This document shows, one piece after another, positions 1-41,191 of a stretch of 64,000 bases of DNA. Position 1 is the first letter of the stretch; the number at the start of each line of letters is the position of its first letter. Source of the DNA: Syntrophaceae bacterium (GTDB lineage: Bacteria; Desulfobacterota; Syntrophia; Syntrophales; Smithellaceae); assembly GCA_018436925.1 (NCBI GenBank), contig JAHDKI010000006.1, positions 68,692 to 132,691 of the forward strand, written 5' to 3'. The notes beneath the pieces are model-generated. The model was not told the origin of the DNA. It did not search any database and saw nothing but the letters and a program-made list of their open reading frames with translations. The position numbers were made by a program, and so were the translations under genes.

Positions 1-392
1 TCAAGGACTGTATTTCAACCGTTTTCGACTCGGCGGAACAATTGATTATCGTTGAAACGGACGGCACCGCAAACTCCCGAAAAACGGCGCACAAACTTTT
101 TGCCGCCGATCCGATCAAGCGAGCGACCGAACTCAAAACTTTGGGGGTGGAGGTTCTGATCTGCGGAGCTATTTCCCGTCCGATGCAGTCGTCGATCCGG
201 TCTCAGGGCATTGCTGTTCATCCTTTTGTCCGCGGCGCCGTGGAAGACGTGCTGAGCGCCTATCAGAACAATCGTCTTGCCCTTCCGGTCTTTTCTTTGC
301 CGGGGTGTCGGGGCAAAGCAGACGGATGCTATCGAAAACAAAGCCGCATACGGGGTCAGGCACCGGGGGCGCGGTGCAGATGGAGGTCGTAA
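1..392 (+). CDS. NifB/NifX-family cofactor-binding domain protein, 5' end cut by window edge, with Arg/Gly/Cys-rich C-terminal tail
   Basis: The frame stays open back to nt 3 (KDCISTVFDSAEQLIIVETDG), so the TTG at 42 is not the true start. It aligns by eye with the paralog at 43813-44214 (VFDSA, GVEV-ICGAIS, AY, xPGC[RK]G tail). Confidence 0.7.
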   Translation, partial: KDCISTVFDSAEQLIIVETDGTANSRKTAHKLFAADPIKRATELKTLGVEVLICGAISRPMQSSIRSQGIAVHPFVRGAVEDVLSAYQNNRLALPVFSLPGCRGKADGCYRKQSRIRGQAPGARCRWRS

Positions 393-450
393 GACTCGGA
401 GGGACATGAAGCCCCCCCGTCAATTTTTATATCGCAAAGGAGATAAAACA

Positions 451-999
451 TTGAACTCGTCCATTCCCAAAGAATTGTTTTTCACCAAAGGCGTCGGCAC
501 ACACCGCGAGCAGCTCCATTCTTTTGAGCTGGCGCTGCGCGATGCAGGCATAGAGAAATGCAACCTGGTTCAGGTCTCAAGCATTATGCCGCCCGGGTGC
601 CGGATTATTTCGAAGGCGGAAGGATTAAAGAAGCTCAAGCCAGGCGCCATCACCTTTTGCGTCATGAGCCGCTGCTGCTCAAATGAACCGAGGCGTCTGA
701 TATCGGCCTCCGTCGGATGCGCGATTCCCGTGGATAAAAAAACCTATGGATATATCAGCGAGCATCACGCCTTCGGTTACACCGAACGCCAGACAGGAGA
801 CTATGCCGAAGATCTTGCGGCGGCCATGCTCGCCTCGACGCTCGGTATCGACTTCAATGTGGACGAAAGCTGGGATGAAAAAAAGGAGCTTTTCAAGATC
901 AGCGGCAAGATCGTAGGCACCCGCAATACAACGCAGTCGGCCGTTTTAAAAACCGGAGATTACACGACCGTGCTCGCGGCCGCAGTGTTTGTTTTCTGA
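451..999 (+). CDS. pdaD: pyruvoyl-dependent arginine decarboxylase
   Basis: Shows the PdaD-like sequence FFTKGVGTHRE...NLVQVSSIMPPGC, with VSS as the self-cleavage/pyruvoyl site. AAGGAG lies 8 nt before the TTG at 451. An alternative ATG at 406 has a poorly spaced SD. The track ORF start at 277 overlaps the upstream gene and is unlikely. Confidence 0.85.
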   Translation: MNSSIPKELFFTKGVGTHREQLHSFELALRDAGIEKCNLVQVSSIMPPGCRIISKAEGLKKLKPGAITFCVMSRCCSNEPRRLISASVGCAIPVDKKTYGYISEHHAFGYTERQTGDYAEDLAAAMLASTLGIDFNVDESWDEKKELFKISGKIVGTRNTTQSAVLKTGDYTTVLAAAVFVF

Positions 1000-1084
1000 T
1001 TGCCTGATTCTGCGCAAGATCAGGCGAATCCATCAGCGACCGGCCAGAACGGTTGGCGGATTTACAGCCAAGGAGGAGAAAACC

Positions 1085-1306
1085 ATGAACGGAAGAAATC
1101 GCAACGCCGGAGGCATGGGACAAGGAGGCGGTCAAGGCCAGGGCCGAGGCGGCGGAGGTCGGGGTCGTATGGGCGGTCCGATGGCCGGAGGAGCAATCGG
1201 CGTTTGCCGCTGCCCAAACTGCGGCCACTCCCAACCCCATGAACGGGGCGTGCCGTGCACGCAGGTAAAATGCCCGCAATGCGGAACAAGTCTGGTTCGG
1301 GAGTAG
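1085..1306 (+). CDS. small Gly/Arg-rich protein with C-terminal CxxC...CxxC zinc ribbon
   Basis: AAGGAGGAG RBS precedes the ATG at 1085. The sequence is MNGRNRNAGGMGQGGGQGQGRGGGGRGRMGG followed by CPNCG...CPQCG. The upstream part of the track ORF (989-1084) has no support. Confidence 0.6.
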   Translation: MNGRNRNAGGMGQGGGQGQGRGGGGRGRMGGPMAGGAIGVCRCPNCGHSQPHERGVPCTQVKCPQCGTSLVRE

Positions 1307-1520
1307 CTCAACCGAATGGGGAATCATGGATCATCAGCCCCGGAGGACATAGGCGGCAAATCCTTGCCGCCGGGATGCCGGCGGCGCGTTGAACACCGCT
1401 TGACGCCGCCGGCACCAATGATGAACGCTGGAGAACAACGGCCAATAAAGGCTGCTTACCTGAACCAGAGACACAGCCAAGTCTTTTAGCGCCGCGCCCA
1501 CGCGGAGAAAAAGGAGTTTT

Positions 1521-1883
1521 ATGAAAATCGCAATAACGACATCCGGCAATGATCTATCGGCGCCGCTCGATCCGCGTTTCGGACGAGCGCCGAAGTTTTT
1601 GATTTACGACCTTGAGGCCGACACCTTCAACGTCATCGACAATCTTCAGAATTTGAACGCGGCTCAGGGCGCGGGCATTCAGTCCGGCCAAAATATCGCC
1701 AGGCAGGGCGTCAAAGCGCTGGTCACGGGCCACTGCGGCCCCAAAGCCTTTCGCGTGCTTCAGGCGGCGGGCATTAAAATCTTCAACACTTCCGCCTCCA
1801 CGGTCGCCGAAGCCCTCGATCAATATCGGACCGGCAAACTGACGGAAGCCGGATCAGCCGACGTTGAAGGACATTGGGCATGA
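1521..1883 (+). CDS. NifB/NifX-family (dinitrogenase Fe-Mo cofactor biosynthesis domain) protein
   Basis: MKIAITTSG...FGRAPKFLIYD...ALVTGHCGPKAF..L..AGIK is the typical NifX/NafY-like single-domain pattern. A good AAGGAG RBS is present. Confidence 0.8.
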   Translation: MKIAITTSGNDLSAPLDPRFGRAPKFLIYDLEADTFNVIDNLQNLNAAQGAGIQSGQNIARQGVKALVTGHCGPKAFRVLQAAGIKIFNTSASTVAEALDQYRTGKLTEAGSADVEGHWA

Positions 1884-2371
1884 CGGATTCTCGCATTGTT
1901 TATTCTCCGATCGGCGTGATTCGCAGCGAACATACGATTGCGGCCAACACCCCCATTCAGCCTGTTTATGCCAAAGGCTGCAAGGGCCGCGCTGAAATCA
2001 TCGACGCTTACAGCGAAGGCCTTTCGGACCTGGAGGGGTTTTCCCACATTTACCTGATTTACCATTTTAACCAAAGCCGGGAGGTGAAGTTGACCGTCAA
2101 GCCTTTTTTACAGGATGTGGATCGCGGCATTTTCTCAACCCGCGCGCCTTATCGCCCAAATCCCATCGGCTTGAGTGTCGTTGAATTGGTTAAAATCGAG
2201 GGAACGGTCTTATATTTTGACGGTGCGGATATTCTGGACGGGACGCCGCTGTTGGATATCAAACCCTACACGGCCAAGTTCGATCTGCACGAGGTGAAGA
2301 CGAACGGATGGCAGGACGAGGTGGATGAAAAAACGGCTCAACATCGCGGAAAAAGAGGGTATTCTCCATGA
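1880..2371 (+). CDS. TsaA/YaeB (TrmO)-like SAM-dependent methyltransferase family protein
   Basis: Shows PIGVIRSEH...GFSHIYLIYHF...RAPYRPNPIGLSVVEL...DILDGTPLLDIKPY. The ATG at 1880 overlaps the upstream stop (ATGA). Confidence 0.8.
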   Translation: MTDSRIVYSPIGVIRSEHTIAANTPIQPVYAKGCKGRAEIIDAYSEGLSDLEGFSHIYLIYHFNQSREVKLTVKPFLQDVDRGIFSTRAPYRPNPIGLSVVELVKIEGTVLYFDGADILDGTPLLDIKPYTAKFDLHEVKTNGWQDEVDEKTAQHRGKRGYSP

Positions 2372-3249
2372 ATATGTGCTTGGATTGCATTCCCTGTTTT
2401 GTCCGCCAGGCTGTGGACGCGGTCAGACTGTCGGGCGCCCCGGAAGAGGAACAAAATCGTTTGATGCAGCGGATTCTTCAATGGCTCGCGGATATAGACT
2501 TACGTCTCCCTCCGCCTGCGGCTTCACAGCGGATTCATCGGCGTTTGCGCGCCCTCCTGCCTACGGACGATCCTTATTTTGCGTCAAAGAAACACCACAA
2601 CGACCTGGCGGCGCGACTGGTTCCCTCCATTCGCCGCCGGATCGCCGCATCGCACGATCCGCTCGCAATGGCCGTCCGTTACGCGATTACGGGCAACATC
2701 ATCGATCTGGGTGCCAAAAATAATGTAGGATTCGGCGAAATTTACTCGGAGTTGCAAAGCGCCCCCATGCAACCCGTCTTCGGAGACCTGAATGTATTCA
2801 AAGAAAAACTTCTTCGGGCCCAGACCATTCTTTACCTGGCCGACAATGCAGGCGAAATTTTTTTCGACCGTCTGCTCATCGAGCAGCTGGTCCACGCAAA
2901 GGTAACGCTTGCCGTGCGCGGCGCGCCGGTCCTCAATGACGCGACCCGTTCCGACGCCCGACAGGCTCGCATCGATGAAATCGCGCAAATCATCGACAAC
3001 GGTTCGGACGCGCCCGGCACACTGCTCGACGACTGCACGGAGGATTTCCGTCGCCGATTCGACGAAGCGGATTTGATCATCGCCAAAGGCCAGGGAAATT
3101 ATGAAAGCCTTTCTGAAGCGCATCGGGAGGTCTTCTTTTTGTTTCGGACGAAATGTCCGGTCATCAGTCGTCATTCCGGATTCTCCATGGGCACATACGT
3201 GGCGGCCAACCGGCAATCCGAACCGCACACTCCGGGAGGCGGCGCATGA
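2368..3249 (+). CDS. DUF89 (ARMT1-like damage-control phosphatase) family protein
   Basis: Shows CLDCIPCFVRQ at the N-terminus, then LADNAGEIFFD and IAKGQGNYESL, which match DUF89 signatures. ATGA overlap with the upstream gene. Confidence 0.8.
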   Translation: MNMCLDCIPCFVRQAVDAVRLSGAPEEEQNRLMQRILQWLADIDLRLPPPAASQRIHRRLRALLPTDDPYFASKKHHNDLAARLVPSIRRRIAASHDPLAMAVRYAITGNIIDLGAKNNVGFGEIYSELQSAPMQPVFGDLNVFKEKLLRAQTILYLADNAGEIFFDRLLIEQLVHAKVTLAVRGAPVLNDATRSDARQARIDEIAQIIDNGSDAPGTLLDDCTEDFRRRFDEADLIIAKGQGNYESLSEAHREVFFLFRTKCPVISRHSGFSMGTYVAANRQSEPHTPGGGA

Positions 3250-4082
3250 GACTCTCCGTGGCATCGGGCAAAGGGGGAACCGGCAAGACAACGCTCAGCG
3301 CTAATCTGGCCAGGATTGCCCAACATACCGTCGTTTTGGCGGATTGCGATGTGGAAGAACCGAACGCGCATTTGTTTTTGAAAACATCCGATATCGAAGA
3401 AAAAGTCGTGAGTCTCCCGATTCCAAAGGTAGATGAAGCGCTTTGCGACGGCTGCGGCCTGTGCTCGAAAATCTGCCAGTTTTCCGCTATCGTCACGTTC
3501 GGCACGGCGCCTTTGGTGTTCCCTGAAATGTGTCACGGTTGCGGAGGCTGTGCGTTGGTGTGTCCGCCTAAGGCGATCACAGAGCATCCGCGCCGTATCG
3601 GGGTTGTCGAAATCTCCCAAGCGGAATCCATCACTCTGATAACCGGCAGGCTCGATGTGGGCGTGGCCCAGGCGCCGCCGCTCATCCGCGCGGTCAAGGA
3701 GGCCGTGCCTCCAAAAACCGACGCCATTTTTGACGCGCCGCCCGGCACCTCGTGCCCGGTTATTGCCGCCGTTCGGGACACGGATATGGTGCTTCTCGTA
3801 ACCGAACCCACGCCATTTGGCCTTCACGATCTTACGCTTGCCGTGGATATGGTGCGCGACTTACAATTGCCTTTTGGCGTCGTTGTAAACCGGATGGGGT
3901 CGGGCGATCGTCGCATTCAGGCGTTTTGTGAAAAACAACAGATTCCCATCTTGCTTGAAATTCCGGACGACCGGCGAATTGCAGAAGCTTACTCGCGAGG
4001 GATTCTGATGGTCGATGCCCTGCCCGAATATCGATCGCTTTTTGAGGATCTATGGAAAACCATCCGACAAAGTTTGAATTAA
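3246..4082 (+). CDS. MinD/ParA-class P-loop ATPase with inserted 2x[4Fe-4S] ferredoxin domain
   Basis: Deviant Walker A SGKGGTGKTT. Also CDVEEPN, two CxxCxxCxxxC motifs (CDGCGLCSKIC, CHGCGGCALVC) and PPGTSCP. The ATG at 3246 overlaps the DUF89 stop (ATGA). Confidence 0.85.
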   Translation: MRLSVASGKGGTGKTTLSANLARIAQHTVVLADCDVEEPNAHLFLKTSDIEEKVVSLPIPKVDEALCDGCGLCSKICQFSAIVTFGTAPLVFPEMCHGCGGCALVCPPKAITEHPRRIGVVEISQAESITLITGRLDVGVAQAPPLIRAVKEAVPPKTDAIFDAPPGTSCPVIAAVRDTDMVLLVTEPTPFGLHDLTLAVDMVRDLQLPFGVVVNRMGSGDRRIQAFCEKQQIPILLEIPDDRRIAEAYSRGILMVDALPEYRSLFEDLWKTIRQSLN

Positions 4083-4095
4083 GGAGAACAAAGAT

Positions 4096-4350
4096 ATGCC
4101 GACATATGAATATCAATGCAGCCGATGCGGTTTGCATTTTGAAAAACAGCAGCCAATGAACGATGAGCCGCTTTCTGTGTGTCCCGATTGCGAAGGAAGC
4201 GTAAAAAGGCTGGTGAGCGGAGGGACCGGTTTTATGATGAAGGGCAAAACCGGACGCTTGCAAGCCTCCGGAGGCTGTTCGCTTGAAGAAGCGGGAAGAA
4301 CCTGCTGCGGCGCCGCAAGCCGGTGCGGCAATTCAAACTGCGGGGACTAG
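4096..4350 (+). CDS. FmdB-family zinc-ribbon protein (CxxC_CxxC_SSSS type)
   Basis: MPTYEYQCSRCG...CPDCEG is the canonical FmdB N-terminus. The C-terminus is Cys-rich. AAGGAG RBS. Confidence 0.75.
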   Translation: MPTYEYQCSRCGLHFEKQQPMNDEPLSVCPDCEGSVKRLVSGGTGFMMKGKTGRLQASGGCSLEEAGRTCCGAASRCGNSNCGD

Positions 4351-4353
4351 ATC

Positions 4354-5307
4354 ATGTCTGCAAAACCTTTTCAGTATCTTTACGGCCCCGTGCCGTCCAG
4401 GCGACTGGGACGTTCACTGGGCATCGACCTGGTCCCTTATAAAACCTGCACGTATGACTGTATTTACTGCCAGTTGGGCAAGACGACGGAAAAAACGATT
4501 GAGCGGCGCGATTACGTTCCCGTAAGCGGCGTTCTTGACGAGCTTGCGGAAAAACTCGCTTCCGGAGCACCTTGCGACTATATCACGCTTGCCGGCTCAG
4601 GCGAACCGACGCTGCACGCCTGCCTGGAAGAACTGATCCGTAAAATCAAGGAAATGACCGGCATCCCCATCGCGGTCATCACCAACGGATCGCTTTTGTA
4701 TCTTCCGGAAGTCCGCGAATCGCTGATGCGCGCCGACCTCGTCGTTCCCTCGCTCGACGCGGGAGACGCGGTTCTGTTCGAATACGTCAACCGGCCGCAT
4801 CCGGACATTATTTTTGAACGGATGGCCGAAGGCCTGGTCGAATTCGGCAGACGCTATGAAGGGTGTTTATGGCTGGAAGTGTTGCTCGTTTCCGGCGTCA
4901 CCGGCCTGGCCTCGGAAGCGAAAAAAATCGCCGCCTGGGCGAAGAAAATCAACGCAGGGAAAATTCAGTTGGGCACGGTCAACCGGCCGGCTTGTGAGGA
5001 TTTTGCCTGTGCGGTGGATGCCAGGCAAATGAAAACACTCGTGGGCCTCTTCCCAGGCGAGGTGGACATGCTAGAAAACGACCGCCCCGCGGATCTGGCT
5101 CCGACGGGGCCGACCGATACGACAGACTCAGACATTCTGAGCCTTTTGGCCAGACGCCCCTGCACCCTTGAAGGCCTCTGCTCCGGGCTGGGCTTGAAGC
5201 CTCAAGATGCGGTCAAACGCATTGAAAGACTGATCGCATTGGGACGGGCTTCAACAAAACGCAATGGGCGTACTGTCTTTTACATCCAGGCGGAGCGTGG
5301 AGTATGA
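4354..5307 (+). CDS. radical SAM protein (COG0731-like) with C-terminal helix-turn-helix-like extension
   Basis: YGPVPSRRLGRSLGIDL followed by the CTYDCIYCQ (CxxxCxxC) radical SAM cluster motif. Also GSGEPTL. Confidence 0.85.
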   Translation: MSAKPFQYLYGPVPSRRLGRSLGIDLVPYKTCTYDCIYCQLGKTTEKTIERRDYVPVSGVLDELAEKLASGAPCDYITLAGSGEPTLHACLEELIRKIKEMTGIPIAVITNGSLLYLPEVRESLMRADLVVPSLDAGDAVLFEYVNRPHPDIIFERMAEGLVEFGRRYEGCLWLEVLLVSGVTGLASEAKKIAAWAKKINAGKIQLGTVNRPACEDFACAVDARQMKTLVGLFPGEVDMLENDRPADLAPTGPTDTTDSDILSLLARRPCTLEGLCSGLGLKPQDAVKRIERLIALGRASTKRNGRTVFYIQAERGV

Positions 5308-6161
5308 AGGAATGGGTCATCATCAGCGGCAAGGGAGGAACGGGTAAAACCAGCATCGCGGCTTCATTGGCCTTTCTGGCCGGCCGCCCGGTGATTTGCG
5401 ATTGCGATGTGGACGCGGCGGATTTGCATCTGGTTTTAGAGCCTGATGTTCTTGAAGAACATGAGTTTCGAAGCGGGCATGAAGCGGTGATCCGACCCGA
5501 CGATTGCAACGGCTGCGGCATCTGTCAGGACTTGTGCCGTTTTAAAGCGATTCATGAAGAGGGTCGGATTTTTTCAGTTGATCCGGTTTCGTGCGAGGGT
5601 TGCGGCGTGTGCGTGCACTTCTGTCCTCAAAAAGCGATTGACTTTCCGGAGAGTCTTTGTGGTAAGTGGTTCATTTCGGAAACAAGGCTCGGTCCGATGG
5701 TTCATGCGCGACTCGGCGTGGCGGCTGAAAACTCGGGCAAGCTGGTTTCCACCGTGCGCCAGGAAGCGCGCAAACTCGCTGAACAAAACGGCCATGATCT
5801 CATCTTGGTGGACGGCCCCCCGGGCATCGGCTGTCCGGTCATCGCTTCGGTCACGGGCGCGTCACAGGTTTTAGTGATTACAGAACCGACTGTATCGGGG
5901 AAGCACGATCTGGAAAGGGTTCTGGGACTGACAAGACATTTTCAGATTCCGGCGGCCGTCTGCGTCAACAAATGGGACATCAATCCCGAAATGACCGAAG
6001 CCATCGAGCAAGCGGCAAAAGAGGCCGGCGCCGCCGTCGCGGGACGTATTCGCTACGATAGAGATGTAACCCGGGCGCAAATTGAGAAAAAAACGGTCCT
6101 GGAAACAAACGCAGCATGCGGTTTGGATATTCTCAGCATATGGAAGCATTTGAATGCTTGA
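5304..6161 (+). CDS. MinD/ParA-class P-loop ATPase with inserted 2x[4Fe-4S] ferredoxin domain (paralog of 3246-4082)
   Basis: Shows SGKGGTGKTS, CDCDVDAAD, CNGCGICQDLC, CEGCGVCVHFC and PPGIGCP. ATGA overlap with the radical SAM stop. Confidence 0.85.
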   Translation: MKEWVIISGKGGTGKTSIAASLAFLAGRPVICDCDVDAADLHLVLEPDVLEEHEFRSGHEAVIRPDDCNGCGICQDLCRFKAIHEEGRIFSVDPVSCEGCGVCVHFCPQKAIDFPESLCGKWFISETRLGPMVHARLGVAAENSGKLVSTVRQEARKLAEQNGHDLILVDGPPGIGCPVIASVTGASQVLVITEPTVSGKHDLERVLGLTRHFQIPAAVCVNKWDINPEMTEAIEQAAKEAGAAVAGRIRYDRDVTRAQIEKKTVLETNAACGLDILSIWKHLNA

Positions 6162-6190
6162 TGACATAAAAAGAGGAGGCGTGTAACATC

Positions 6191-7084
6191 GTGGAAAGCA
6201 AAAAATCATGCAGTTCGTGTTCGGATTCAAGCTGTTCGGCAAAAAAACAGGGGGCAAATGAGACGAAGGAAGAGTATGCGGATCGTCAACGTCTTGCAGC
6301 AAGACTTTGCCGCATTCAAAATAAGATTGTGGTGCTTTCCGGCAAGGGCGGTGTTGGCAAGAGCACCGTGGCGGTGAATCTGGCCACGGCGCTGGCCTTA
6401 AACGGTCTGCGCGTGGGGCTTCTGGATGTCGATATTCACGGCCCCAGCGTGCCCACCATGCTTGGGCTGGAGGGCGCCTCGCTCAAGGGAAACCCCGGAG
6501 AGCTCTTCCCCGTTGAATTCGGCGGGCTGAAAGTCATGTCTTTAGGGTTTCTCCTGCAAAACCCGGATGATGCGGTCCTCTGGCGCGGCCCGATGAAGAT
6601 GGGCGTCATCAAGCAGTTTCTCACGGACGTCAACTGGGGGGACCTGGATTATCTGATTGTCGATGCGCCTCCGGGGACCGGCGATGAGCCACTGTCCTTA
6701 TGCCAGTTGATCCAGCCGCTTGACGGCGCGGTCATTGTGACCACTCCCCAGAAAGTCGCCGCCGTCGACGTGCGCAAGTCCATCAGTTTCTGCAGAAGGC
6801 TGGAGGTGCCGGTTCTGGGTATCGTGGAGAATATGAGCGGCTTTGTCTGTCCCAAATGCGGCGAGCTCACGCAAATCCTTCCGGAAGGCGGCGGACGGCA
6901 GATCGCAACGGACATGAACGTAACCTTCCTGGGTGCGATTCCGATGGATCCCGGCATTGCCCAGTCCGGGGATTCCGGCAAGGTTTTCATTTATCATTCG
7001 TCGGAAACGCCGACCGGAAAGATTCTGCAAAGTATCATCGATCAAATTACGGAGCCGGACAAAACAAAAAATATCAACGCATAA
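6191..7084 (+). CDS. Mrp/NBP35/ApbC-family Fe-S cluster carrier ATPase with Cys-rich N-terminus
   Basis: Shows SGKGGVGKSTV, LLDVDIHGPS, DYLIVDAPPGTGDE and the FVCPKCG (CPxC) motif. The N-terminal stretch is CSSCSDSSCS. GTG start with AGGAGG upstream. Confidence 0.9.
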   Translation: MESKKSCSSCSDSSCSAKKQGANETKEEYADRQRLAARLCRIQNKIVVLSGKGGVGKSTVAVNLATALALNGLRVGLLDVDIHGPSVPTMLGLEGASLKGNPGELFPVEFGGLKVMSLGFLLQNPDDAVLWRGPMKMGVIKQFLTDVNWGDLDYLIVDAPPGTGDEPLSLCQLIQPLDGAVIVTTPQKVAAVDVRKSISFCRRLEVPVLGIVENMSGFVCPKCGELTQILPEGGGRQIATDMNVTFLGAIPMDPGIAQSGDSGKVFIYHSSETPTGKILQSIIDQITEPDKTKNINA

Positions 7085-7094
7085 GGAGCATCCT

Positions 7095-7433
7095 ATGAAA
7101 ATCGCCATTCCGTTAGCCGAAGGCAGGTTAGCGATGCATTTCGGACATTGCGCAAGTTTCGCGCTGGTGGATATCGATCCAGAGACGAAGAAAATTATCA
7201 AAACGGAAGAACTGGCCGCGCCGCCCCATCAACCGGGGCTTTTGCCGCCTTGGCTTGCCGAGCGCGGCGCGACGATGATTATCGCCGGCGGTATGGGACA
7301 GCGAGCTCAGCAGCTTTTCGCCCAGCAGGGCATCCAGGTCGTGGTGGGGGCGCCCGCCGAAACCCCTGAAAAAATCATCACAGACTATTTTGCCGGTTCA
7401 CTGAAGGTGGGTGACAACATCTGCGACCATTAA
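7095..7433 (+). CDS. NifB/NifX-family cofactor-binding domain protein
   Basis: Shows MKIAIPLAEGRLAMHFGHC..F...D and IIAGGMGQRA..LF...GI. AAGGAG RBS before the ATG at 7095. Confidence 0.8.
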   Translation: MKIAIPLAEGRLAMHFGHCASFALVDIDPETKKIIKTEELAAPPHQPGLLPPWLAERGATMIIAGGMGQRAQQLFAQQGIQVVVGAPAETPEKIITDYFAGSLKVGDNICDH

Positions 7434-7469
7434 GACTATCCTTTCTGACAAATAGGGAAATGGTGCGCC

Positions 7470-9011
7470 ATGCCGTTTGACGAACTGCTGAAGGATTTGC
7501 AAATCCGGAGGGAAAAGGCTCTCGCCCAGGGCGGAGCCGACAAAATTAAAAAACAGCACGACAAGGGCCGCCTGACGGCGCGCGAGCGCATCGCGCGCCT
7601 CCTGGATGAAAATTCGTTTATGGAGTTGGGCGCTTTATGCGCCTCCGATATTCCCGGCATGGAAGATAAAACGCCGGCCGACGGGCTGGTGCTGGGCTAC
7701 GGATTGGTCGAAGGCAGGCGCGTCGGGATTTTCGCCAACGACTTTACGGTGCTGGCCGGATCGAGCGCCACCATCAACAACAAGAAGATGGGGATCTTCA
7801 AAAACCAGCTCTATGCGTATGGTTTTCCGATGATCTGGCTTGGCGAAGCCGGCGGCCAGCGCATTCCCGATCTGCAGGATTCCGGGCGCATGCTGTTTCA
7901 CGGCGTCGGCTCCGACGCGGCGCGGGCCGGCTACAGCCATTTTCGTCAGGTTCCTTACGTGATGGCGGCGATGGGCGACTGCCACGGCGTGCCTGACTGG
8001 CAGGCGTGTCTGGCGGATTTTACCCTTATTGTCAAAGGCGCCTCCATTGCCGTATCCGGCCCCCGAGCGCTGGGCAAAGCCATCGGCCAGCAGCACAGCG
8101 CCGAAGAAATGGGCGGCTGGCAGGTTCACGCCGTGCATACCGGCATGGCCGATCAGGTGGCGGAAAATGAGGAAGACGCTTTTCGCCTGATCAGGACCTA
8201 TCTGGACTACATGCCGTCGAACAACCGGGAACTCGCGCCCAAACGCCCTGTTCCCGGCGGATCGGATGACCGCATTCAAAAAATTCTGGACATTCTTCCT
8301 GAAAAACGAACGCGCGCCTACGACATGCACAAGATTCTCGCCTGCATCGTGGACGGCGGGCAGTATCTGGAATTCAAACCCTCCTTCGGGAAAATGCTGA
8401 TTACCGCTTTGGCGCGCGTGGGCGGCGAGACCGTCGGCTTTATCGCGAGCAATCCCATCGTCAACGCCGGCGCTACCGATACGGACGCGCTGGAGAAATC
8501 CACCAGCTTTATGTGTCATTGCGACTCGTTCAACATTCCACTGGTCTTTCTGGTGGACACGCCCGGGCACCTGACCGGCCTGGAGGCGGAGCTAAAACGC
8601 GTAGGCGCGAAGGTGGTCAACAATCTCCAGGCGCTGTTTCAGGTGACGGTTCCCAAAATCACGATTCTCATCCGCAAAGGCTACGGCCAGGCGATGGTCA
8701 ACATGTGCGCAGCCGGGGCGGGCGCGGATTTTCTGGTGGCCTGGCCCACGGCTGAAATCAGCTTCATGGACCCACATGTCGGCGCGGACATCGTCTTCGG
8801 AAGCCTTCCGGAAGCCGAGCGCGAAAAGCTGGTGGAGAAAATGATGGCGGATTCTTCGCCATATCCGGCCGCTCGCGCATACGGCATTTCGGATGTCATC
8901 CATCCCTGCGACACGCGCGCTTATCTGATCAACATTTTGGGCATTATCCGGGAGTCGAAAACGAAAGGCATGAGCCGGCATCTTCTGGCGGGCTGGCCGA
9001 CCAAGTTCTAA
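7470..9011 (+). CDS. acyl-CoA carboxylase carboxyltransferase (beta) subunit family protein
   Basis: 513 aa with crotonase-like carboxyl-transferase N and C domains (GGADKIKKQHDKGRLTARERI..., FANDFTVLAGS, GEAGGQRIPD, FLVDTPG). No biotin-carrier partner is present in the window. Confidence 0.85.
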   Translation: MPFDELLKDLQIRREKALAQGGADKIKKQHDKGRLTARERIARLLDENSFMELGALCASDIPGMEDKTPADGLVLGYGLVEGRRVGIFANDFTVLAGSSATINNKKMGIFKNQLYAYGFPMIWLGEAGGQRIPDLQDSGRMLFHGVGSDAARAGYSHFRQVPYVMAAMGDCHGVPDWQACLADFTLIVKGASIAVSGPRALGKAIGQQHSAEEMGGWQVHAVHTGMADQVAENEEDAFRLIRTYLDYMPSNNRELAPKRPVPGGSDDRIQKILDILPEKRTRAYDMHKILACIVDGGQYLEFKPSFGKMLITALARVGGETVGFIASNPIVNAGATDTDALEKSTSFMCHCDSFNIPLVFLVDTPGHLTGLEAELKRVGAKVVNNLQALFQVTVPKITILIRKGYGQAMVNMCAAGAGADFLVAWPTAEISFMDPHVGADIVFGSLPEAEREKLVEKMMADSSPYPAARAYGISDVIHPCDTRAYLINILGIIRESKTKGMSRHLLAGWPTKF

Positions 9012-9029
9012 ACTAGAAGGAGGGGTCAT

Positions 9030-9986
9030 ATGACGGCGCAAACCGGTTTAAAAGCGGTGGACAAGGTTGAAATCTGGACGCTTCAGGACAACTACATCGA
9101 AATGACCGCGATGGACAACAATGCCGTCGTCACACGGGCGATGGCGATCAAAGACGGTGAAATCAAGGCGTCCATTCTGGCGGAGCACGGTTTTTCGGCG
9201 CTTGTCAAAACAACGGCGGAGGGCAAAACGCACTCGCTGCTTTTCGACTTCGGTTTTTCTGAAGACGGAGCGGCCCGGAATGCGGAGAGTCTCGGTTTGG
9301 ATATGCGCGAGGTCGAAGCCGCAGTGCTCTCCCACGGTCACAGCGACCACACCGGCGCGATGAAAGCTTTCGGTCGGATGATCGGCAAGACCAACCTGCC
9401 CCTTGTGCTTCACCCGACGGCTTTCAAAGCCCCCCGTTATCTGAAGCTGGGCGAAGAGCTCAAGTTCTATTTCCCGAAGGTGACGCGAGAGATGGTTAAA
9501 GACGCGGGCTTCGATCCGGTAGAAACCGAAACCCCCTACCCTCTTTTTGACAATACGATCCTGTTTTTAGGCGGCATTCCCCGCCGGACCGAATTTGAAA
9601 AAGGCTTTCCCATCGCCCATCGTCTGGAAAAAGGCAAGGAAGTCTGGGATGCCATTGAAGACGACACGTCGGTGGTGATGAATTTGAAAAACAAGGGCCT
9701 GGTGATTTTATCCGGCTGTGCGCACGCCGGGATTGTCAATACGGTGCAATACGCCATAGACGTCACGGGTGTCGCTTCAGTGCATGCGATCATGGGCGGT
9801 TTTCACCTGTCCGGACCTTTTTTTGAACCGATCATCGACCGCACCGCCGAAGAGCTGCATAAATTTCAACCGGCTTATGTGATTCCGACACACTGCACCG
9901 GCCGCAAGGCAATCATGGAAATTGAGAAGAAGATGCCTGAACAGTTTATATTGAATATGGCGGGGACAAAGCTTACGTTTGCATAA
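9030..9986 (+). CDS. MBL-fold metallo-hydrolase (COG1237-like)
   Basis: Shows the HGHSDHTG metal-binding motif, SGCAHAG and GGFHL. Paralog of 39946-40698. Confidence 0.8.
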   Translation: MTAQTGLKAVDKVEIWTLQDNYIEMTAMDNNAVVTRAMAIKDGEIKASILAEHGFSALVKTTAEGKTHSLLFDFGFSEDGAARNAESLGLDMREVEAAVLSHGHSDHTGAMKAFGRMIGKTNLPLVLHPTAFKAPRYLKLGEELKFYFPKVTREMVKDAGFDPVETETPYPLFDNTILFLGGIPRRTEFEKGFPIAHRLEKGKEVWDAIEDDTSVVMNLKNKGLVILSGCAHAGIVNTVQYAIDVTGVASVHAIMGGFHLSGPFFEPIIDRTAEELHKFQPAYVIPTHCTGRKAIMEIEKKMPEQFILNMAGTKLTFA

Positions 9987-10009
9987 GGATCAAGGATCAA
10001 GGTTCAAGT

Positions 10010-10034
10010 CCCCCTTTCTTAAAGGGGGATTTTT
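10010..10034 (+). terminator. rho-independent terminator
   Basis: CCCCCTTT-CTT-AAAGGGGG hairpin (10010-10028) followed by a T5 tract. Confidence 0.75.
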
Positions 10035-10103
10035 CACGCGAGAATGGAAGAGTCAATCGCCACCTAAATCTTCTAGAAGCGACTCATATGAAAAGGAGCA
10101 TCA

Positions 10104-10577
10104 ATGGAGAAAAAAGCATTTCAGGATTATTACCCGGAAGATTTAAGCCATTGTTACGGCTGCGGCAGGTTAAACGATAAAGGCCTGCAAATTAAAAGTT
10201 TCTGGGACGCAGAAGAATCCGTCTGCGTTTATACGCCCAGGGATTACCATACCGCCATTCCCGGCTTTGTGTACGGCGGGCTCATTGCTTCGCTGATCGA
10301 CTGCCACTCGACCGGCACAGCCGCTGCGGCTAAATACCGGGCGGAGGGCCGGGATATGGATTCTGATCCGCCCATCCGCTTCGTGACCGCTTCTTTGCAT
10401 GTGGACTATCTTCTGCCGACGCCGATGGGTGTTGCACTTGAAGTCCGGGGAAAGGTCAAGCTGATCAAGGGCCGCCGCGTGGTTGTTGAGGCGCGCCTGA
10501 TGGCCGAAGGAAAAGTCTACGCGCAAGGCGAGGTGGTGGCCGTCCAGATGCCGGAGCACATGCGTCCGGAAAAGTAA
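10104..10577 (+). CDS. PaaI/hotdog-fold thioesterase with N-terminal CxxC element
   Basis: Shows HCYGCG, then the hotdog core GFVYGGLIASLIDCHS. 157 aa with a good RBS. Confidence 0.75.
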   Translation: MEKKAFQDYYPEDLSHCYGCGRLNDKGLQIKSFWDAEESVCVYTPRDYHTAIPGFVYGGLIASLIDCHSTGTAAAAKYRAEGRDMDSDPPIRFVTASLHVDYLLPTPMGVALEVRGKVKLIKGRRVVVEARLMAEGKVYAQGEVVAVQMPEHMRPEK

Positions 10578-10604
10578 ATTTATTTAAACGGGAACCGATC
10601 TGTC

Positions 10605-11429
10605 ATGATGAACAAAGCCATTAAAACCTTCTACTTCAGCGCCACCGGAACAACAAAGAAGATCGCGCAGGCCGTTGCCGGAGAGCTGGCAAGGCGCTTT
10701 GGCGGCCAATCGGTTGTTCATGTCGATTTCACACTGCCGGAGGGCAGAAAAGAACCCGCCTCTTTTTCCGGACAGGATATTGTCGTGGCCGGCGTTCCGG
10801 TTTACGCGGGCCGGGTTCCCAATGTCTTATTGAAATATTTAAATACCATCCAGGGTAACGGCGCGCTGGCCGTTGCCCTGGTCGTTTACGGAAATCGCCA
10901 TTTTGACGACGCGCTCGTCGAATGGCAGGATATCCTGAGCTCAAGGGGTTTTCAAGTCGTTGCCGGCGGCGCTTTTATCGGCGAGCATGCCTTTTCTCGA
11001 ACGCTGGGGCAAAACAGGCCCGACGCACAGGATATAGCGCGTGCGGCGGACTTTTCCGGACGCGTTTATGCCAAGCTTAAAGCATCTCCCGACGATTTCA
11101 AAACCATCTGCGTTCCGGGAAACCGACCCTACCAACCCTATTACCGGCCCAAGGATAAAGACGGCAATCCGGTTGCCTTCCACAAGGTGATCCCCCAAAC
11201 CAGTGCCGACTGCATCTCCTGCGGCCTGTGCGCAAGTCTTTGTCCGATGGGGTCCATTGATGTCGAGGACGAATCCACAATCACAGGCATCTGCATCAAA
11301 TGCTGCGCTTGCGTAAAAAACTGCCCGGTGGAGGCGAAAAATTTTGATGACGAAATTTTTCTGCGGCACAAGCAGGAACTTGAGCTTGCCTTTACATCCC
11401 CCCGCCGCGAACCGGAATTTTTTTTATAA
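10605..11429 (+). CDS. flavodoxin-like domain plus 2x[4Fe-4S] ferredoxin protein (EFR1-like)
   Basis: The N-terminal FYFSATGTTKKIA motif is flavodoxin-like. The C-terminal motifs are CISCGLCASLCP and CIKCCACVKNCP. Confidence 0.7.
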   Translation: MMNKAIKTFYFSATGTTKKIAQAVAGELARRFGGQSVVHVDFTLPEGRKEPASFSGQDIVVAGVPVYAGRVPNVLLKYLNTIQGNGALAVALVVYGNRHFDDALVEWQDILSSRGFQVVAGGAFIGEHAFSRTLGQNRPDAQDIARAADFSGRVYAKLKASPDDFKTICVPGNRPYQPYYRPKDKDGNPVAFHKVIPQTSADCISCGLCASLCPMGSIDVEDESTITGICIKCCACVKNCPVEAKNFDDEIFLRHKQELELAFTSPRREPEFFL

Positions 11430-11507
11430 ATAACCCCCGCATTGATATAGATCAATGCGCGAATAAGTTCTCTCTGATAGGTTGCCGCCCAAAAGGAGAA
11501 AAACCCG

Positions 11508-12458
11508 ATGAGCGAGCGTTTAAGGAATTTCCCGATTTCATTTTTTGCCGTGGTGATGGGGCTTGCTGGCGCAACCATTGCCTGGCAGCGCGCGGAAGCG
11601 CTTTTGTCCTGGCCGGACGCCGTCAGTACGGCCCTGCTTGTCATCACGGCGGCGATCTTTTTGGCGATTTTTTCTATTTATACCGCTAAACTTGTAAAAT
11701 ATCGTGAAGAAATAAAAATTGAGTTTAAAAACATCACCAAGCTTTCTTTTTTCCCGACGATCTCCATCAGTCTGCTATTGCTTGGTATCGCATCAATGGG
11801 GCTGTATCCCGGTCTGTCAAATCTTCTTTGGATCGTTGGAACCGCGGTTCATTTCTGCTTCAGCGTAGCGGTTATATCCATCTGGATTCGTCATCCTTCG
11901 CTGGAAATCAATGCCATCAGTCCGGCATGGTTTATTCCCGTGGTCGGCAATATTTTGGTGCCGGTGGCCGGTGTGGCCTATGCGTCTGTTGAGCTTTCGT
12001 GGTTTTTCTTCAGCATCGGCCTGGTTTTCTGGGTGGCCCTTTTTACGATTCTTTTATACCGCCTGATTTTTCACCATCCGCTGCCGGAACGGCTTTTGCC
12101 GACCCTGTTTATTCTGATCGCCCCGCCCGCAGTCGGGTTTATCGCGTATGTAAAAATGACGGGGGCGGTCGACGGCCCGTCCCGATTGCTATACTATTTC
12201 GGGTTGTTCGTTTTTGTTTTGATGATTCCGCAGCTTAAAATGCTATCCCGGATCAAATATTACCTGTCCTGGTGGGCCTATACATTTCCGCTGGCGGCGT
12301 TGACAATTTCCACGATTCTCATGTATCATCACATTCACCTCGGGTTTTTCAAATATCTCGCCCTGGTTTTGCTGGCGCTCCTTTCGTGTGTTGTGTTGAT
12401 GCTTGCCTTTATGACGCTTGCAGCCGTTAAGAACAAAAAAATCTGCATCGAAGATTGA
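11508..12458 (+). CDS. TehA/SLAC1/Mae1 (TDT) family anion channel/transporter
   Basis: About 10 hydrophobic helices. The start MSERLRNFPISFFAVVMGLAG is typical of the TehA family. AAGGAG RBS. Confidence 0.75.
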   Translation: MSERLRNFPISFFAVVMGLAGATIAWQRAEALLSWPDAVSTALLVITAAIFLAIFSIYTAKLVKYREEIKIEFKNITKLSFFPTISISLLLLGIASMGLYPGLSNLLWIVGTAVHFCFSVAVISIWIRHPSLEINAISPAWFIPVVGNILVPVAGVAYASVELSWFFFSIGLVFWVALFTILLYRLIFHHPLPERLLPTLFILIAPPAVGFIAYVKMTGAVDGPSRLLYYFGLFVFVLMIPQLKMLSRIKYYLSWWAYTFPLAALTISTILMYHHIHLGFFKYLALVLLALLSCVVLMLAFMTLAAVKNKKICIED

Positions 12459-12497
12459 TCAGTATTTTCATATTTCCCAAATTGTGAAGGAGCATTT

Positions 12498-20020: not shown

Positions 20021-22246
<2,226 letters not shown>

Positions 22247-39494: not shown

Positions 39495-39944
39495 ATGAAA
39501 ATGGCTGAGGAACACAAGACGGATGAAGAAATCAAAAAAGAAATGATCGATCTTCTGATGGAAAAGATTACGGGAGGTCTGTCCGAAAAGGTGGTCGATT
39601 ACGGCACCCACCCGCGCAATTACGGCGCTATTGAAAAACCCGACGGCCACGCCAAGATCAAAGGCCCCTGCGGCGATACGATGGAAATGTATCTCAAAAT
39701 TCAAAACGATAAAGTTGTCGATATTGCCTATACGACGGACGGCTGCATGACCTCTCATGCGGCCGGAACCGCCGCCACGGTGATGGCCAAAGGCAAGCCT
39801 GTGCGGGAGTGCCTGAGGATCAATCAAAGCTCCATTTTAGAGCACCTGGGGGGCATGCCCGAAGATTCGCAGCACTGCGCGTTACTTGCCGCCAACACGT
39901 TTCACAAAGCGCTGCGGGACTATGCCGTCGGAAAGAAGAAATAA
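39495..39944 (+). CDS. IscU/NifU N-terminal-domain-like Fe-S scaffold protein
   Basis: Shows HPRNYG, GPCGDTM, TDGCMTS and SQHCALLA, the three conserved Cys of the U-type scaffold. The ATG at 39501 has better SD spacing. Confidence 0.8.
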   Translation: MKMAEEHKTDEEIKKEMIDLLMEKITGGLSEKVVDYGTHPRNYGAIEKPDGHAKIKGPCGDTMEMYLKIQNDKVVDIAYTTDGCMTSHAAGTAATVMAKGKPVRECLRINQSSILEHLGGMPEDSQHCALLAANTFHKALRDYAVGKKK

Positions 39945-39945
39945 G

Positions 39946-40698: not shown

Positions 40699-40774
40699 GT
40701 GTTATTGCCTTGCGCCGGTACTTTTGTCATGGCGCCGGTCGTCTTGTTTAGACATAAGAAACGGGGGGGAAAAG

Positions 40775-41191
40775 ATGGTTGTTCAACCTTGCGAAATTCA
40801 CCACGTCGTCATGGGGGCGGATCTGAATCACCACGGCACCCTATTTGCCGGTCAAGGCGCTAAGTGGTTTATCGAAGCGGGTTTTATCGCCGCAGCCAAC
40901 ATGACCAAGCCGGAAAGTATCGTTTGCGTTAACGTCCACGGCATGAGGTTTCGTCGGCCCGCTCCGGCCGGAACCGTGATCCGCTTCGTAAGCCGGGTTG
41001 TCCTGACCGGCCAGACGCGAATCGTCTGCTTCGTCAGGGCCACCATCAGCAAAAACGAACAGCTGCTCGTGGAAGGGTTCCTAACGTTTGTTCATGTCGA
41101 TCATGAAGGGCGTCCTATTCCGCACGGCATCACGGTTGAAGCCGTAACGCCTGAGGATCTGCTCCTGCAGAAACAGGCGCAAGCTCTGTAA
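40775..41191 (+). CDS. acyl-CoA thioesterase (hotdog fold, YciA-like)
   Basis: Shows VMGADLNHHGTLFAGQGAKW. 138 aa. A G-rich SD precedes the ATG at 40775. Confidence 0.7.
   Translation: MVVQPCEIHHVVMGADLNHHGTLFAGQGAKWFIEAGFIAAANMTKPESIVCVNVHGMRFRRPAPAGTVIRFVSRVVLTGQTRIVCFVRATISKNEQLLVEGFLTFVHVDHEGRPIPHGITVEAVTPEDLLLQKQAQAL

Follow-up and report, generated by a model that had tools for sequence, protein, structure and literature searches.

A Smithellaceae gene cluster built on the orange protein (ORP) gene set of Desulfovibrio and interleaved with additional enzyme genes

No function has been established for the orange protein (ORP) complex of Desulfovibrio since the isolation of the orange protein and the 2011 description of the complex; Fievet et al. 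reportedly gave that primary description, which also covers the extent of conservation of the orp cluster. The complex and its regulation by OrpR and sigma-54 have been published (PMC6345978, PMC8359166, PMC3897727): in Desulfovibrio, Orp3 co-purifies with Orp4 and Orp8 (PMC6345978), MrpORP transfers [4Fe-4S] clusters to Orp3-Orp4-Orp8 in vitro (PMC6345978), and the orp operons are expressed only at low redox potential (PMC8359166). The orange protein contains a thiomolybdate-copper cluster as isolated, and this Mo-Cu cluster is bound non-covalently (PMC6345978). The role of the complex "is however still unclear" (PMC6345978, PMC8359166); our literature search returned no work on it later than the papers cited here, and nothing relevant linking ORP with radical S-adenosylmethionine (SAM) enzymes or DUF89, or on COG1149, COG1433 or MTH1175. 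Here we analyse a 64,000-nucleotide stretch (the window) of a Syntrophaceae bacterium of the Smithellaceae lineage (contig JAHDKI010000006.1, assembly GCA_018436925.1), which opens with a co-directional gene cluster that an earlier note, made from the sequence alone, had taken for an uncharacterised system with no assigned function. That view is not borne out, as the core maps onto the published ORP complex. The core of the gene cluster is the ORP gene set of Desulfovibrio in a Smithellaceae version, and this identity is the firm part of our interpretation; the core is already known, and the extra enzymes interleaved with it are handles on the purpose of ORP.

All twelve + strand genes within the first 7.4 kb were confirmed, with exact ATGA start/stop overlaps at 1880, 2368, 3246 and 5304, and the domains named in the earlier note were recovered with Pfam and NCBIfam. 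These include three NifX-like proteins (Nitro_FeMo-Co matches at 3-392, 1521-1883 and 7095-7433) and two paralogous MinD-class ATPases, each with a CbiA/ParA match and two Fer4 matches for the inserted 2x[4Fe-4S] ferredoxin. Together with the two genes that follow, the cluster reads:

1-392 (open reading frame 3-392), + strand: NifX1, NifX-like protein with an Arg/Gly tail, first gene of the operon, 5' end cut by the window edge (Pfam Nitro_FeMo-Co)
406-999, + strand: PdaD, pyruvoyl-dependent arginine decarboxylase (Pfam PvlArgDC; NCBIfam NF009064)
1085-1306, + strand: GRZn, Gly/Arg-rich zinc-ribbon protein (motif; a 73-aa gene is called in locus L003)
1307-1520, + strand: structured intergenic spacer of 214 nt (folding and shuffles)
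1521-1883, + strand: NifX2, homologue of the orange protein (Orp8/MTH1175 type), 120 aa (Pfam Nitro_FeMo-Co; PDB 2WFB)
1880-2371, + strand: short TrmO/TsaA-like protein, 163 aa (Pfam TrmO_N; TIGR00104)
2368-3249, + strand: DUF89/ARMT1-like protein, metal-dependent phosphatase fold (Pfam PF01937)
3246-4082, + strand: MinD-ferredoxin ATPase, A-type, Orp3/Orp4-like (Pfam CbiA/ParA and 2x Fer4)
4096-4350, + strand: FmdB-type zinc ribbon (Zn_ribbon_8; TIGR02605, 67 bits)
4354-5307, + strand: radical SAM protein, single cluster, C-terminal winged helix, COG0731 "TYW1-like" label (Pfam Radical_SAM)
5304-6161, + strand: MinD-ferredoxin ATPase, B-type, Orp3/Orp4-like paralogue (Pfam CbiA/ParA and 2x Fer4)
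6191-7084, + strand: Mrp/NBP35 ATPase, equivalent of the P-loop domain of MrpORP (Orp9) (ParA/NUBPL, 342 bits; NF041136)
7095-7433, + strand: NifX3, equivalent of the MrpORP Di-Nase domain (Pfam Nitro_FeMo-Co; NF041136)
7470-9011, + strand: carboxyltransferase, 513 aa, methylmalonyl-CoA decarboxylase alpha-like but below the cut-off, strain-specific insertion
9030-9986, + strand: metallo-beta-lactamase (MBL)-fold hydrolase, probable last gene of the operon

NifX2 has the D. gigas orange protein as its best match in the PDB (2WFB, E = 7e-20, full length), with MTH1175 scoring equally, and no Cys is conserved among its 81 homologues. Mrp, which has a CPKC motif and a Cys-rich N-terminus, and NifX3 match the NCBIfam model of MrpORP (NF041136) at model positions 2-256 (384.8 bits) and 265-365 (132.5 bits), respectively; because the two proteins match the two halves of the model, MrpORP is present here and split into two adjacent genes. 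NifX3 is 51% identical to the C-terminal Di-Nase domain of DVU2109, whose sequence we took from the MrpORP alignments in the supplement of PMC6345978. Both HFGHC and CDH, the motifs proposed as cluster ligands of MrpORP (PMC6345978), are retained in NifX3 and conserved in 48-56 of 57 homologues; in NifX3, Ala takes the place of the first Cys of CxHFGHC. Both ATPases share the published architecture of Orp3 and Orp4, which are paralogous MinD-like proteins with two [4Fe-4S] ferredoxin motifs each (PMC6345978).

The gene set is conserved far beyond this genome. A pattern scan of one genome per species returned at least 538 relatives of the ATPase, and the 80 best-scoring ones, 49-74% identical to the window ATPase, were used as loci for comparison. 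Open reading frames (ORFs) of each locus were assigned to window proteins by BLASTP, on the same strand and within 7 kb of the anchor; many of the contigs are short, so that the neighbour counts are lower bounds. The 80 loci span more than ten phyla of bacteria and archaea: Smithellaceae, Desulfobacterales, Syntrophobacterales, Planctomycetota, Acidobacteriota, Chloroflexota, Verrucomicrobiota, Lentisphaerota, Ignavibacteria, Omnitrophota, Armatimonadota and Bacillota among the bacteria, Methanocellaceae and Bathyarchaeia among the archaea. At least one cultured isolate is also among them, the betaproteobacterium Propionivibrio limicola DSM 6832 (L014), which has the ATPase pair and the radical SAM gene. 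A B-type ATPase was counted in 77/80 loci, any NifX-like gene in 72, Mrp in 39, the radical SAM protein in 22 by this neighbour count, the MBL hydrolase, which follows the cluster, in 18, DUF89 and FmdB in 17 each, GRZn in 15 (21 by motif), the OrpR-like regulator in 15, the TrmO-like protein in nine and PdaD in six. Control genes taken from farther downstream in the window gave 5/80 for a thioesterase, 1/80 for an EFR1 ferredoxin, 1/80 for SLAC1 and 0/80 for the carboxyltransferase. De novo clustering of the unassigned ORFs added further families, of which DUF5320 is the commonest near the ATPase pair (37/80), followed by IscU-like NifU_N (19/80), DUF134 (18/80), class-I methyltransferases (9 + 5 + 4 loci), CGGC (8/80), 4HBT thioesterases (7 loci more, beside the 5 found by BLASTP) and the DUF364/DUF4213 "heavy-metal chelation" family (6/80). 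Because the families flanking the ATPase pair are the same across the 80 loci, which come from more than ten phyla, and the controls lie far lower, the clustering is far beyond chance. The earlier note's proposal presupposed synteny among related genomes, and a gene set for metallocluster handling that is conserved across bacteria and archaea is what we find. Its remark that no client enzyme is encoded nearby also stands: no nitrogenase, carbon monoxide dehydrogenase (CODH), hydrogenase or other obvious client recurs in the 80 loci, and none is present in the window ORFs examined, including the ten largest of those beyond 12.4 kb.

The two ATPases are the centre of the conserved set. A and B are 32% identical, and the paralogues are adjacent in 77 of the 80 loci. 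All eight ferredoxin Cys are essentially invariant in 81 A-type and 75 B-type sequences, and so is a Cys in switch II, seven residues past the Walker-B Asp (C170 in 81/81 A-type sequences, within PPGTSCP; C177 in 75/75 B-type sequences, within PPGIGCP). The switch-I Cys of the "DCD" motif, C34, is present in 80/81 A-type and 53/75 B-type sequences, so that the extra Cys pointed out in the earlier note (DCD and PPG..CP) are indeed conserved. The A-type is marked by DCDVEEPN.HLF, NR...GD and PPGTSCP, the B-type by DVDAADLHL, HARL..ENSGKLV, NK.D.N and PPGIGCP. B-type residues ~219-225 form an NKxD-like motif, VNKWDIN ("NK.DlN" in at least 90% of the 75 sequences), where the A-type has NRxxxGD. 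This motif resembles the guanine-specificity motif of GTPases, and A and B might therefore differ in nucleotide preference.

An exhaustive search of 1.84 billion representative sequences gave 924 clusters (at 50% identity) of the ATPase family at E <= 1e-30. Among the best 150 representatives of the family, roughly 30 are ~600 aa long (about 580-700 aa) and have two matched stretches; in P0241, the one fusion examined, the N-terminal part (residues 5-282) shares 56% identity with A and the C-terminal part (residues 323-609) shares 55% with B. Given this Rosetta-stone fusion, the adjacency of A and B in nearly all loci and the co-purification published for Desulfovibrio (PMC6345978), an A-B heterodimer is the most likely state, and we infer an obligate one. 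The earlier note had proposed a NifH-like heterodimeric donor: its heterodimer is supported by the 77/80 adjacency, the A-B fusions and the co-purification of Orp3 with Orp4, whereas the NifH-likeness amounts to an analogy, the folds lying nearer to MinD.

The AlphaFold2 (AF2) monomer model of the A-type ATPase (pLDDT 91.8) has a long C-terminal helix at residues 260-277. Its nearest solved folds are archaeal MinD and then McdA, FleN and Soj, with ATPase-type HypB, ApbC/Cfd1 and NifH-like proteins ranking below these MinD/ParA-type proteins, and neither the sequence nor the fold searches found a solved PDB structure of a ferredoxin-inserted ATPase. The ATPases fall outside CooC, CfbC, HypB, NifH and bona fide MinD when judged with curated models. 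Membership of the NifH/BchL/CfbC group was rejected, with BchX scoring 25.8 bits on the ATPases against a cut-off of 331; the nifH (20.6 bits, cut-off 394) and CfbC (25.7 bits, cut-off 402) models scored on the Mrp protein only and are absent from the best 25 of 37 and the best 25 of 50 matches of A and B, and Pfam Fer4_NifH gave 19.7 bits, below its threshold of 25. MinD proper was likewise rejected (minD_arch, 59.7 and 49 bits against a cut-off of 201.75), as were CooC and HypB, neither of which has a model among the best 25 of 37 and 25 of 50 NCBIfam matches listed. NifH holds a subunit-bridging [4Fe-4S] cluster on two Cys per subunit, Cys97 and Cys132. In a profile alignment to a NifH sequence, only the first 50 residues aligned, and the switch-II region was compared by eye. 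The switch-II Cys, the only one comparable in position to a NifH cluster ligand, is presumably offset from Cys132 by no more than one residue when both are counted from Walker B, and we read the Cys97 region as presumably replaced by the ferredoxin insert in the ATPases.

The sequence to the left of the window can be followed in L001, a 107-kb metagenome contig that is 99.7% identical to window positions 1-7373. There, the full-length NifX1 gene (137 aa; L001 6735-7148) directly follows an OrpR-like gene and a sigma-54-type promoter, TGGCATcctctTTGCT, the 3' end of which lies 49 bp before the NifX1 start codon. The regulator (452 aa) has PAS, Sigma54_activat and HTH_8 domains, a C-x8-C-x3-C triad and a GAFTDA motif. 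In OrpR, C52, C61 and C65 bind a redox-sensing [4Fe-4S] cluster in the PAS domain with this same spacing (PMC8359166), and the unusual GAFTDA motif is listed for DVU2106 (PMC4641369). Across related loci, 18 of 22 neighbouring regulators have the Cys triad and 14 of 22 have GAFTDA, and a NifX1-type gene directly follows an OrpR-like regulator in at least 12 loci. A gene for a Cys-rich, predicted metal-binding DUF1847 protein lies just left of the window, divergent from the OrpR-like gene (L001 4311-5186, - strand), and DUF1847 is also found beside the ATPase pair in a Planctomycetota and a Bathyarchaeota locus (L009, L036 and L075 are listed).

A second locus with a regulator of the same type is present in the window at 39495-45771, where a + strand arm converges on a - strand operon:

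44386-45771, - strand: second OrpR-type sigma-54 activator, 54% identical to the upstream OrpR-like protein, with the same C-x8-C-x3-C and GAFTDA
44387-44370, - strand: perfect palindrome AGTCGCGTTATTGCGACT, read directly from the sequence, ~137 bp upstream of the sigma-54-like promoter
44242-44227, - strand: sigma-54-like promoter TGGCACGCAAAATGCT (pattern match)
43813-44214, - strand: NifX1-like protein, 40% identical to NifX1 (Pfam)
43431-43793, - strand: DUF5320 protein (Pfam PF17253, 84.7 bits)
42758-43258, - strand: peptide deformylase (Pfam)
42222-42758, - strand: 2x[4Fe-4S] ferredoxin with a Gly/Arg tail (Pfam)
41670-42197, - strand: 175-aa ORF without a family
41319-41501, - strand: FmdB (Pfam)
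39495-39944, + strand: IscU-like protein (Pfam)
39946-40698, + strand: MBL paralogue (Pfam)
40724-41191, + strand: 4HBT thioesterase (Pfam)

These gene families are those that accompany the ATPase pair elsewhere, and in this genome the system seems to be divided between two loci, each under an OrpR-type regulator. The short palindromes upstream of the promoters were read by eye and remain candidates only, the repeat search not having reported them.

The operon itself is larger than 1-7433, the extent given in the earlier note, beginning upstream of the window and probably ending after the MBL gene at ~10030. The end at 7433 did not hold: spacing of at most 36 bp continues from NifX2 through the carboxyltransferase to the MBL gene, which is followed by a terminator-like hairpin at 10011-10028. 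The operon reading follows from the overlapping or tightly spaced genes and from the absence, within the operon genes, of a strong sigma-70 promoter or a convincing terminator. A pattern search with one mismatch found no internal sigma-54 promoter in window 1-12600 (three sites elsewhere in the window are not above chance), and Rfam at a permissive threshold gave no RNA family match over the same 1-12600, hence no riboswitch of the molybdenum or tungsten cofactor (Moco/Wco) type. The only long spacer of the operon, at 1307-1520, folds into two GC-rich hairpins (minimum free energy -81.4 kcal/mol, z = -3.4, none of 200 shuffles as stable), lacks an Rfam match and a T-tract, and may be a processing or stabilising element. 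PdaD may start at ATG 406 or, as called in L001, at a TTG near 451.

The carboxyltransferase gene is absent from the 99.7%-identical contigs L001, L002 and L004, apparently also from L003, and from the 80 related loci; in L001 the MBL gene lies 21 bp past NifX3. In view of this absence and of the flanks, where the last ~60 bp of NifX3 and the beginning of the MBL gene show unusual local divergence, the stretch at 7374-9007 is a strain-specific insertion, the local divergence pointing to recombination. The carboxyltransferase is thus probably a passenger and not part of the system. Farther downstream, at 12498-14198 and 20033-22246, the window has genes of a redox and sulfur-stress flavour, in a lineage of strict anaerobes. 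Among these are a CoA-disulfide-reductase-like flavoprotein with a rhodanese domain, relatives of which lie near the ATPase pair in 6/80 loci, as well as peroxiredoxins (seen in L001) and a catalase-peroxidase.

The small proteins at the start of the operon bear on what the system may handle. NifX1 has two Cys that are nearly invariant in 32 aligned sequences (C62 of CGAIS, 32/32; C110 of PGC, 30/32), and nearly all 32 carry a strongly cationic Arg/Gly tail after PGC. NifX1 and its orthologues thus have the architecture of IssA, a Pyrococcus protein in which a NifX-like IPR003731 domain is joined to a cationic tail rich in Gly, Arg and aromatic residues and which has been proposed to wrap thioferrate (PMC5524996); the "IssX" clade of mesophiles, whose tails are Gly-rich and have a high pI, has yet to be characterised (PMC5524996). 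The GRZn motif, C.CP.CG...H.RG.PC....CP.CG, is present in 21/80 loci. It is fused to NifX1 through a Gly/Arg-rich linker in L010, L015 and L074 and, as a variant motif, in L013, and because of these four fusions NifX1 and GRZn would be two parts of one functional unit. DUF5320, one of the families that the earlier note proposed to search for, fails as an assignment for GRZn, as 1085-1306 has no match to Pfam PF17253; the genuine DUF5320 protein, encoded at 43431-43793 (- strand), is likewise rich in Gly, Arg and aromatic residues. In Smithellaceae, pdaD sits between the NifX1 and GRZn halves. Its product passes the arginine decarboxylase equivalog NF009064 (214.4 bits, cut-off 207); as it occurs in only 6/80 loci and is placed between two modules fused elsewhere, the gene looks inserted and is probably a passenger.

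The enzymes interleaved with the core are less uniform. The radical SAM protein has a single invariant CX3CX2C, an N-terminal GPVPSRRLGxSLG motif and a C-terminal winged helix (AF2 pLDDT 87.6); Foldseek gives generic core matches only (pyruvate formate-lyase activating enzyme, TYW1, NifB and viperin, with TM ~0.5-0.58), and the protein fails all curated NCBIfam family cut-offs. TYW1/Taw1 was rejected on TIGR03972 (28.1 bits, cut-off 317.95), the "wyosine synthetase" names in Joint Genome Institute records of its relatives being labels at the COG level. NifB was rejected too, in view of the lack of a NifB model match and the single CX3CX2C, the fold match at TM ~0.5 being generic. Homologues were found in 24/80 loci, 21 of them with GPVPSRRLGxSLG, and the family extends over at least ten phyla, with Methanocellaceae and Bathyarchaeia among its carriers. 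The gene lies between the two ATPase genes in nine loci (Smithellaceae, Lentisphaeraceae, Pirellulales, Acidobacteriota and an unclassified bacterium) and overlaps the B-type ATPase gene by ATGA in the window. FmdB has the C-terminal motif CCG....C....C (Cys kept in 12-14 of 15 sequences), and at least six other loci have its gene directly in front of that for the radical SAM protein.

The TrmO-like protein scores 121.3 bits with TIGR00104, above the cut-off of 93.25, Pfam finding only TrmO_N in its 163 aa; homologues 58-73% identical occur in 9/80 loci, including Ignavibacteria, Pirellulales and Acidobacteriota. In other Smithella loci (L005, L009 and others), a gene for a class-I methyltransferase follows that of the radical SAM protein and precedes that of the B-type ATPase, and P0206 is a fusion of a methyltransferase with a radical SAM protein. 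In the present operon, the SAM-binding TrmO-like protein may play the part of the class-I methyltransferase. DUF89 has a Pfam match of 236 bits and scores 169 and 156 bits on the NCBIfam equivalogs for damage-control phosphatases, the cut-offs of which are 440 and 500; other Smithella species have an unassigned multi-pass membrane protein in its place. These data speak for the FmdB-radical SAM pair, DUF89 and the MBL hydrolase belonging to the system as optional modules and not being neighbours by chance.

On balance, we favour the reading that the cluster is an ORP-type, redox-controlled operon encoding a machine that would hold metal-sulfur clusters and pass them on. An OrpR-type activator acting on the sigma-54 promoter would switch the operon on at low redox potential, as in D. 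vulgaris, and the products would form a soluble multiprotein machine for metal-sulfur clusters. The A and B ATPases would work as an obligate heterodimer whose ATP-driven closure joins the switch-II Cys of both subunits and the switch-I Cys of A, creating a transient inter-subunit metal or cluster site beside the electron-carrying ferredoxin inserts. The NifX-like proteins, with NifX2 as the orange protein, would dock as cluster donors or acceptors, and GRZn would be the partner of NifX1, in which two Cys are invariant and the cationic tail resembles that of IssA. The FmdB-radical SAM pair, the TrmO-like protein, DUF89 and the MBL hydrolase would be add-ons that vary between lineages and probably provide the cluster with a small ligand or peptide, or modify one, PdaD and the carboxyltransferase being passengers.

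Several points weigh against this reading. At the level of the ATPases, the switch-I C34 is variable in the B-type (53/75), and the DCD Cys aligns with NifH Cys38, which is not known to be a ligand of the cluster; the inter-subunit site is drawn only from conservation and from analogy with other SIMIBI proteins (NifH Cys132, the CooC CXC). Regarding the identity with ORP, neither Mrp (384.8 bits) nor NifX3 (132.5 bits) alone reaches the 450-bit cut-off of NF041136, the putative Orp3/Orp4-like assignment of the ATPases, and their orthology to DVU2103/DVU2104, are drawn from architecture and context, and the genes form one co-directional operon downstream of the regulator, in contrast to the two divergent operons of Desulfovibrio. 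The 80 loci are neither a random nor a phylogenetically independent sample, and the high identities across phyla suggest transfer of the whole cluster between lineages, which would inflate co-occurrence. The roles of the accessory enzymes are inferred, and every functional statement for this organism is based wholly on homology. Finally, loss of OrpR in D. vulgaris leads to morphological defects (PMC8359166), and morphology is the only phenotype reported in Desulfovibrio.

The most credible alternative, which we nevertheless consider unlikely, is that the system stores or sequesters metal sulfides and does not assemble them. The cationic NifX1, GRZn, DUF5320 and the Gly/Arg-tailed ferredoxin would act like Pyrococcus IssA, their tails binding anionic metal-sulfide polymers (thioferrate, thiomolybdate or thiotungstate) in a sulfidic, reduced cytoplasm, while the ATPase pair and Mrp load or mobilise the store. 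The proposed wrapping of thioferrate by the NifX-like domain and cationic tail of IssA, together with the IssX clade (PMC5524996), is in line with such a store, as are the Arg/Gly tails on nearly all 32 NifX1-type sequences, the GRZn-NifX1 fusions in four loci and the rank of DUF5320 as the commonest extra neighbour (37/80). The thiomolybdate-copper cluster on the orange protein as isolated (PMC6345978) and the confinement of expression to low redox potential by OrpR (PMC8359166) fit it as well. A store, however, has no obvious need for two ATPases with electron-transfer domains or for a radical SAM enzyme; the present tails are short and not as rich in aromatic residues as IssA is described to be, and Arg/Gly-rich segments are also typical of nucleic-acid binders.

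It is conceivable, though quite unlikely, that the extended ORP neighbourhood goes further and forms a self-contained assembly line for an undescribed organometallic or heterometal-sulfur cofactor of strict anaerobes. Its parts would be OrpR, NifX1/GRZn/DUF5320, the orange protein, the A-B heterodimer, the split MrpORP, the IscU-like protein, the FmdB-radical SAM pair, the TrmO-like protein or methyltransferase, DUF89 and the MBL hydrolase. The A-B pair would then be a NifH/CooC-like, ATP-driven insertase with built-in electron wires, and the radical SAM enzyme with its partners would produce or alter a ligand of the cluster, either a non-protein one or the Cys-rich tail of FmdB, in parallel with NifB and NifV for the iron-molybdenum cofactor (FeMo-co) or HydE and HydG for the H-cluster.

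We hold it to be very unlikely that this is a positioning or cell-division system of the MinD/ParA type, in which the ATPases would be spatial regulators at the membrane or pole and their Fe-S domains redox sensors only. The ranking of archaeal MinD, McdA, FleN and Soj as nearest solved folds is what such a system would give; so is the long C-terminal helix at 260-277 of the model, Orp3 and Orp4 having been reported with a MinD-like amphipathic C-terminus, and so are the polar location of MrpORP and the morphological defects after loss of OrpR in D. vulgaris (PMC6345978, PMC8359166). Yet no MinC, MinE or ParB partner appears in the window cluster or among the recurrent families of the 80 loci, the NCBIfam MinD models reach 49-60 bits against cut-offs above 200, and the neighbours are overwhelmingly concerned with metal and Fe-S handling (IscU-like, Mrp, NifX-like, CGGC, DUF364). 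An invariant switch-II Cys is, moreover, typical of SIMIBI metallochaperones and not of MinD.

We give least credence to a mosaic operon, in which the ORP core would do no more than share a transcript with housekeeping enzymes unrelated to it, the TrmO-like protein, the TYW1-like radical SAM enzyme and PdaD acting on tRNA or polyamines and DUF89 on damaged metabolites. The TrmO equivalog cut-off is passed, the sources label the radical SAM protein "wyosine synthetase", PdaD is a bona fide arginine decarboxylase that is rare in related loci and apparently inserted, the carboxyltransferase insertion is confined to this strain, and DUF89 gives way to a membrane protein in other Smithella genomes; but at least ten phyla have the radical SAM gene together with the ATPase pair, often placed between the ATPase genes and translationally overlapping them, its adjacency to FmdB is conserved, DUF89 and MBL occur in 17-18/80 loci against 0-1 for control genes, and the radical SAM protein scores 28 bits against the TYW1 cut-off of 318.

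Returning to the favoured reading of an ORP-type machine for metal-sulfur clusters, the comparative picture yields hypotheses that the Desulfovibrio model, which is without several of these genes, could not give. These are an obligate and sometimes fused A-B pair, an invariant switch-II Cys, an IssA-like NifX protein as the first OrpR-controlled gene, a recurrent FmdB-radical SAM pair, DUF89, MBL, IscU-like and DUF5320 partners, and the absence of a nearby client enzyme. The ORP system is restricted to anaerobes and, on present evidence, very widespread among them (924 clusters; at least 538 genomic matches). If it is a general buffer for Fe-S or Mo/W-S clusters, or a cofactor assembly line, it bears on metal homeostasis in syntrophic, sulfate-reducing and methanogenic communities.

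Compared with described systems, the ATPases recall the SIMIBI metallochaperones CooC and ATPase-type HypB, which are nucleotide-dependent dimers holding metal on switch-II Cys at the dimer interface, HypB being among the fold matches; unlike these, they lack membership at the level of hidden Markov models (HMM) and a nearby Ni-enzyme client, and the ferredoxin insertion is unique to their family. With nitrogenase cofactor assembly (NifB, NifX/NafY, NifH, NifEN), the locus shares the logic of a radical SAM enzyme, NifX-fold carriers and a dimeric Fe-S ATPase of the SIMIBI class, and the DCD motif of the ATPases aligns with the GCD of NifH. It differs in having no NifEN/NifDK-like scaffold or client, in a radical SAM protein that has only one cluster motif and neither a fused NifX domain nor a match to the NifB HMM, and in ATPases that carry an inserted ferredoxin and are structurally nearer to MinD. 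The protein encoded at 6191-7084 resembles Mrp/NBP35/ApbC carriers in its deviant Walker A and CxxC (ApbC model 240 bits, cut-off 348), from which it is set apart by the Cys-rich N-terminal extension and the separately encoded Di-Nase partner; it appears dedicated to a specific neighbouring complex and not to general Fe-S delivery. NifX1 has the IPR003731 domain and Gly/Arg tail of Pyrococcus furiosus IssA, with separate Gly/Arg partners here (GRZn, DUF5320). The tails are shorter than that of IssA, contain Cys (PGC) and may end in a zinc ribbon, and NifX1 belongs to an operon containing ATPases.

The closest system remains the ORP system of D. vulgaris and D. alaskensis (Orp3, Orp4, Orp5, Orp8, Orp9 = MrpORP; OrpR). 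The likeness extends to the orange protein homologue, the pair of MinD-like ATPases with two [4Fe-4S] ferredoxin motifs each, the additional small NifX-like protein or proteins, and a sigma-54 promoter with an adjacent PAS-domain enhancer-binding protein (PAS-EBP) that carries the C-x8-C-x3-C triad and GAFTDA. Besides the operon arrangement, the Smithellaceae version differs in that MrpORP is encoded in two genes, in six or seven extra interleaved genes (FmdB, radical SAM, TrmO-like, DUF89, GRZn, MBL, PdaD) and in a second OrpR-controlled mini-locus in the same genome.

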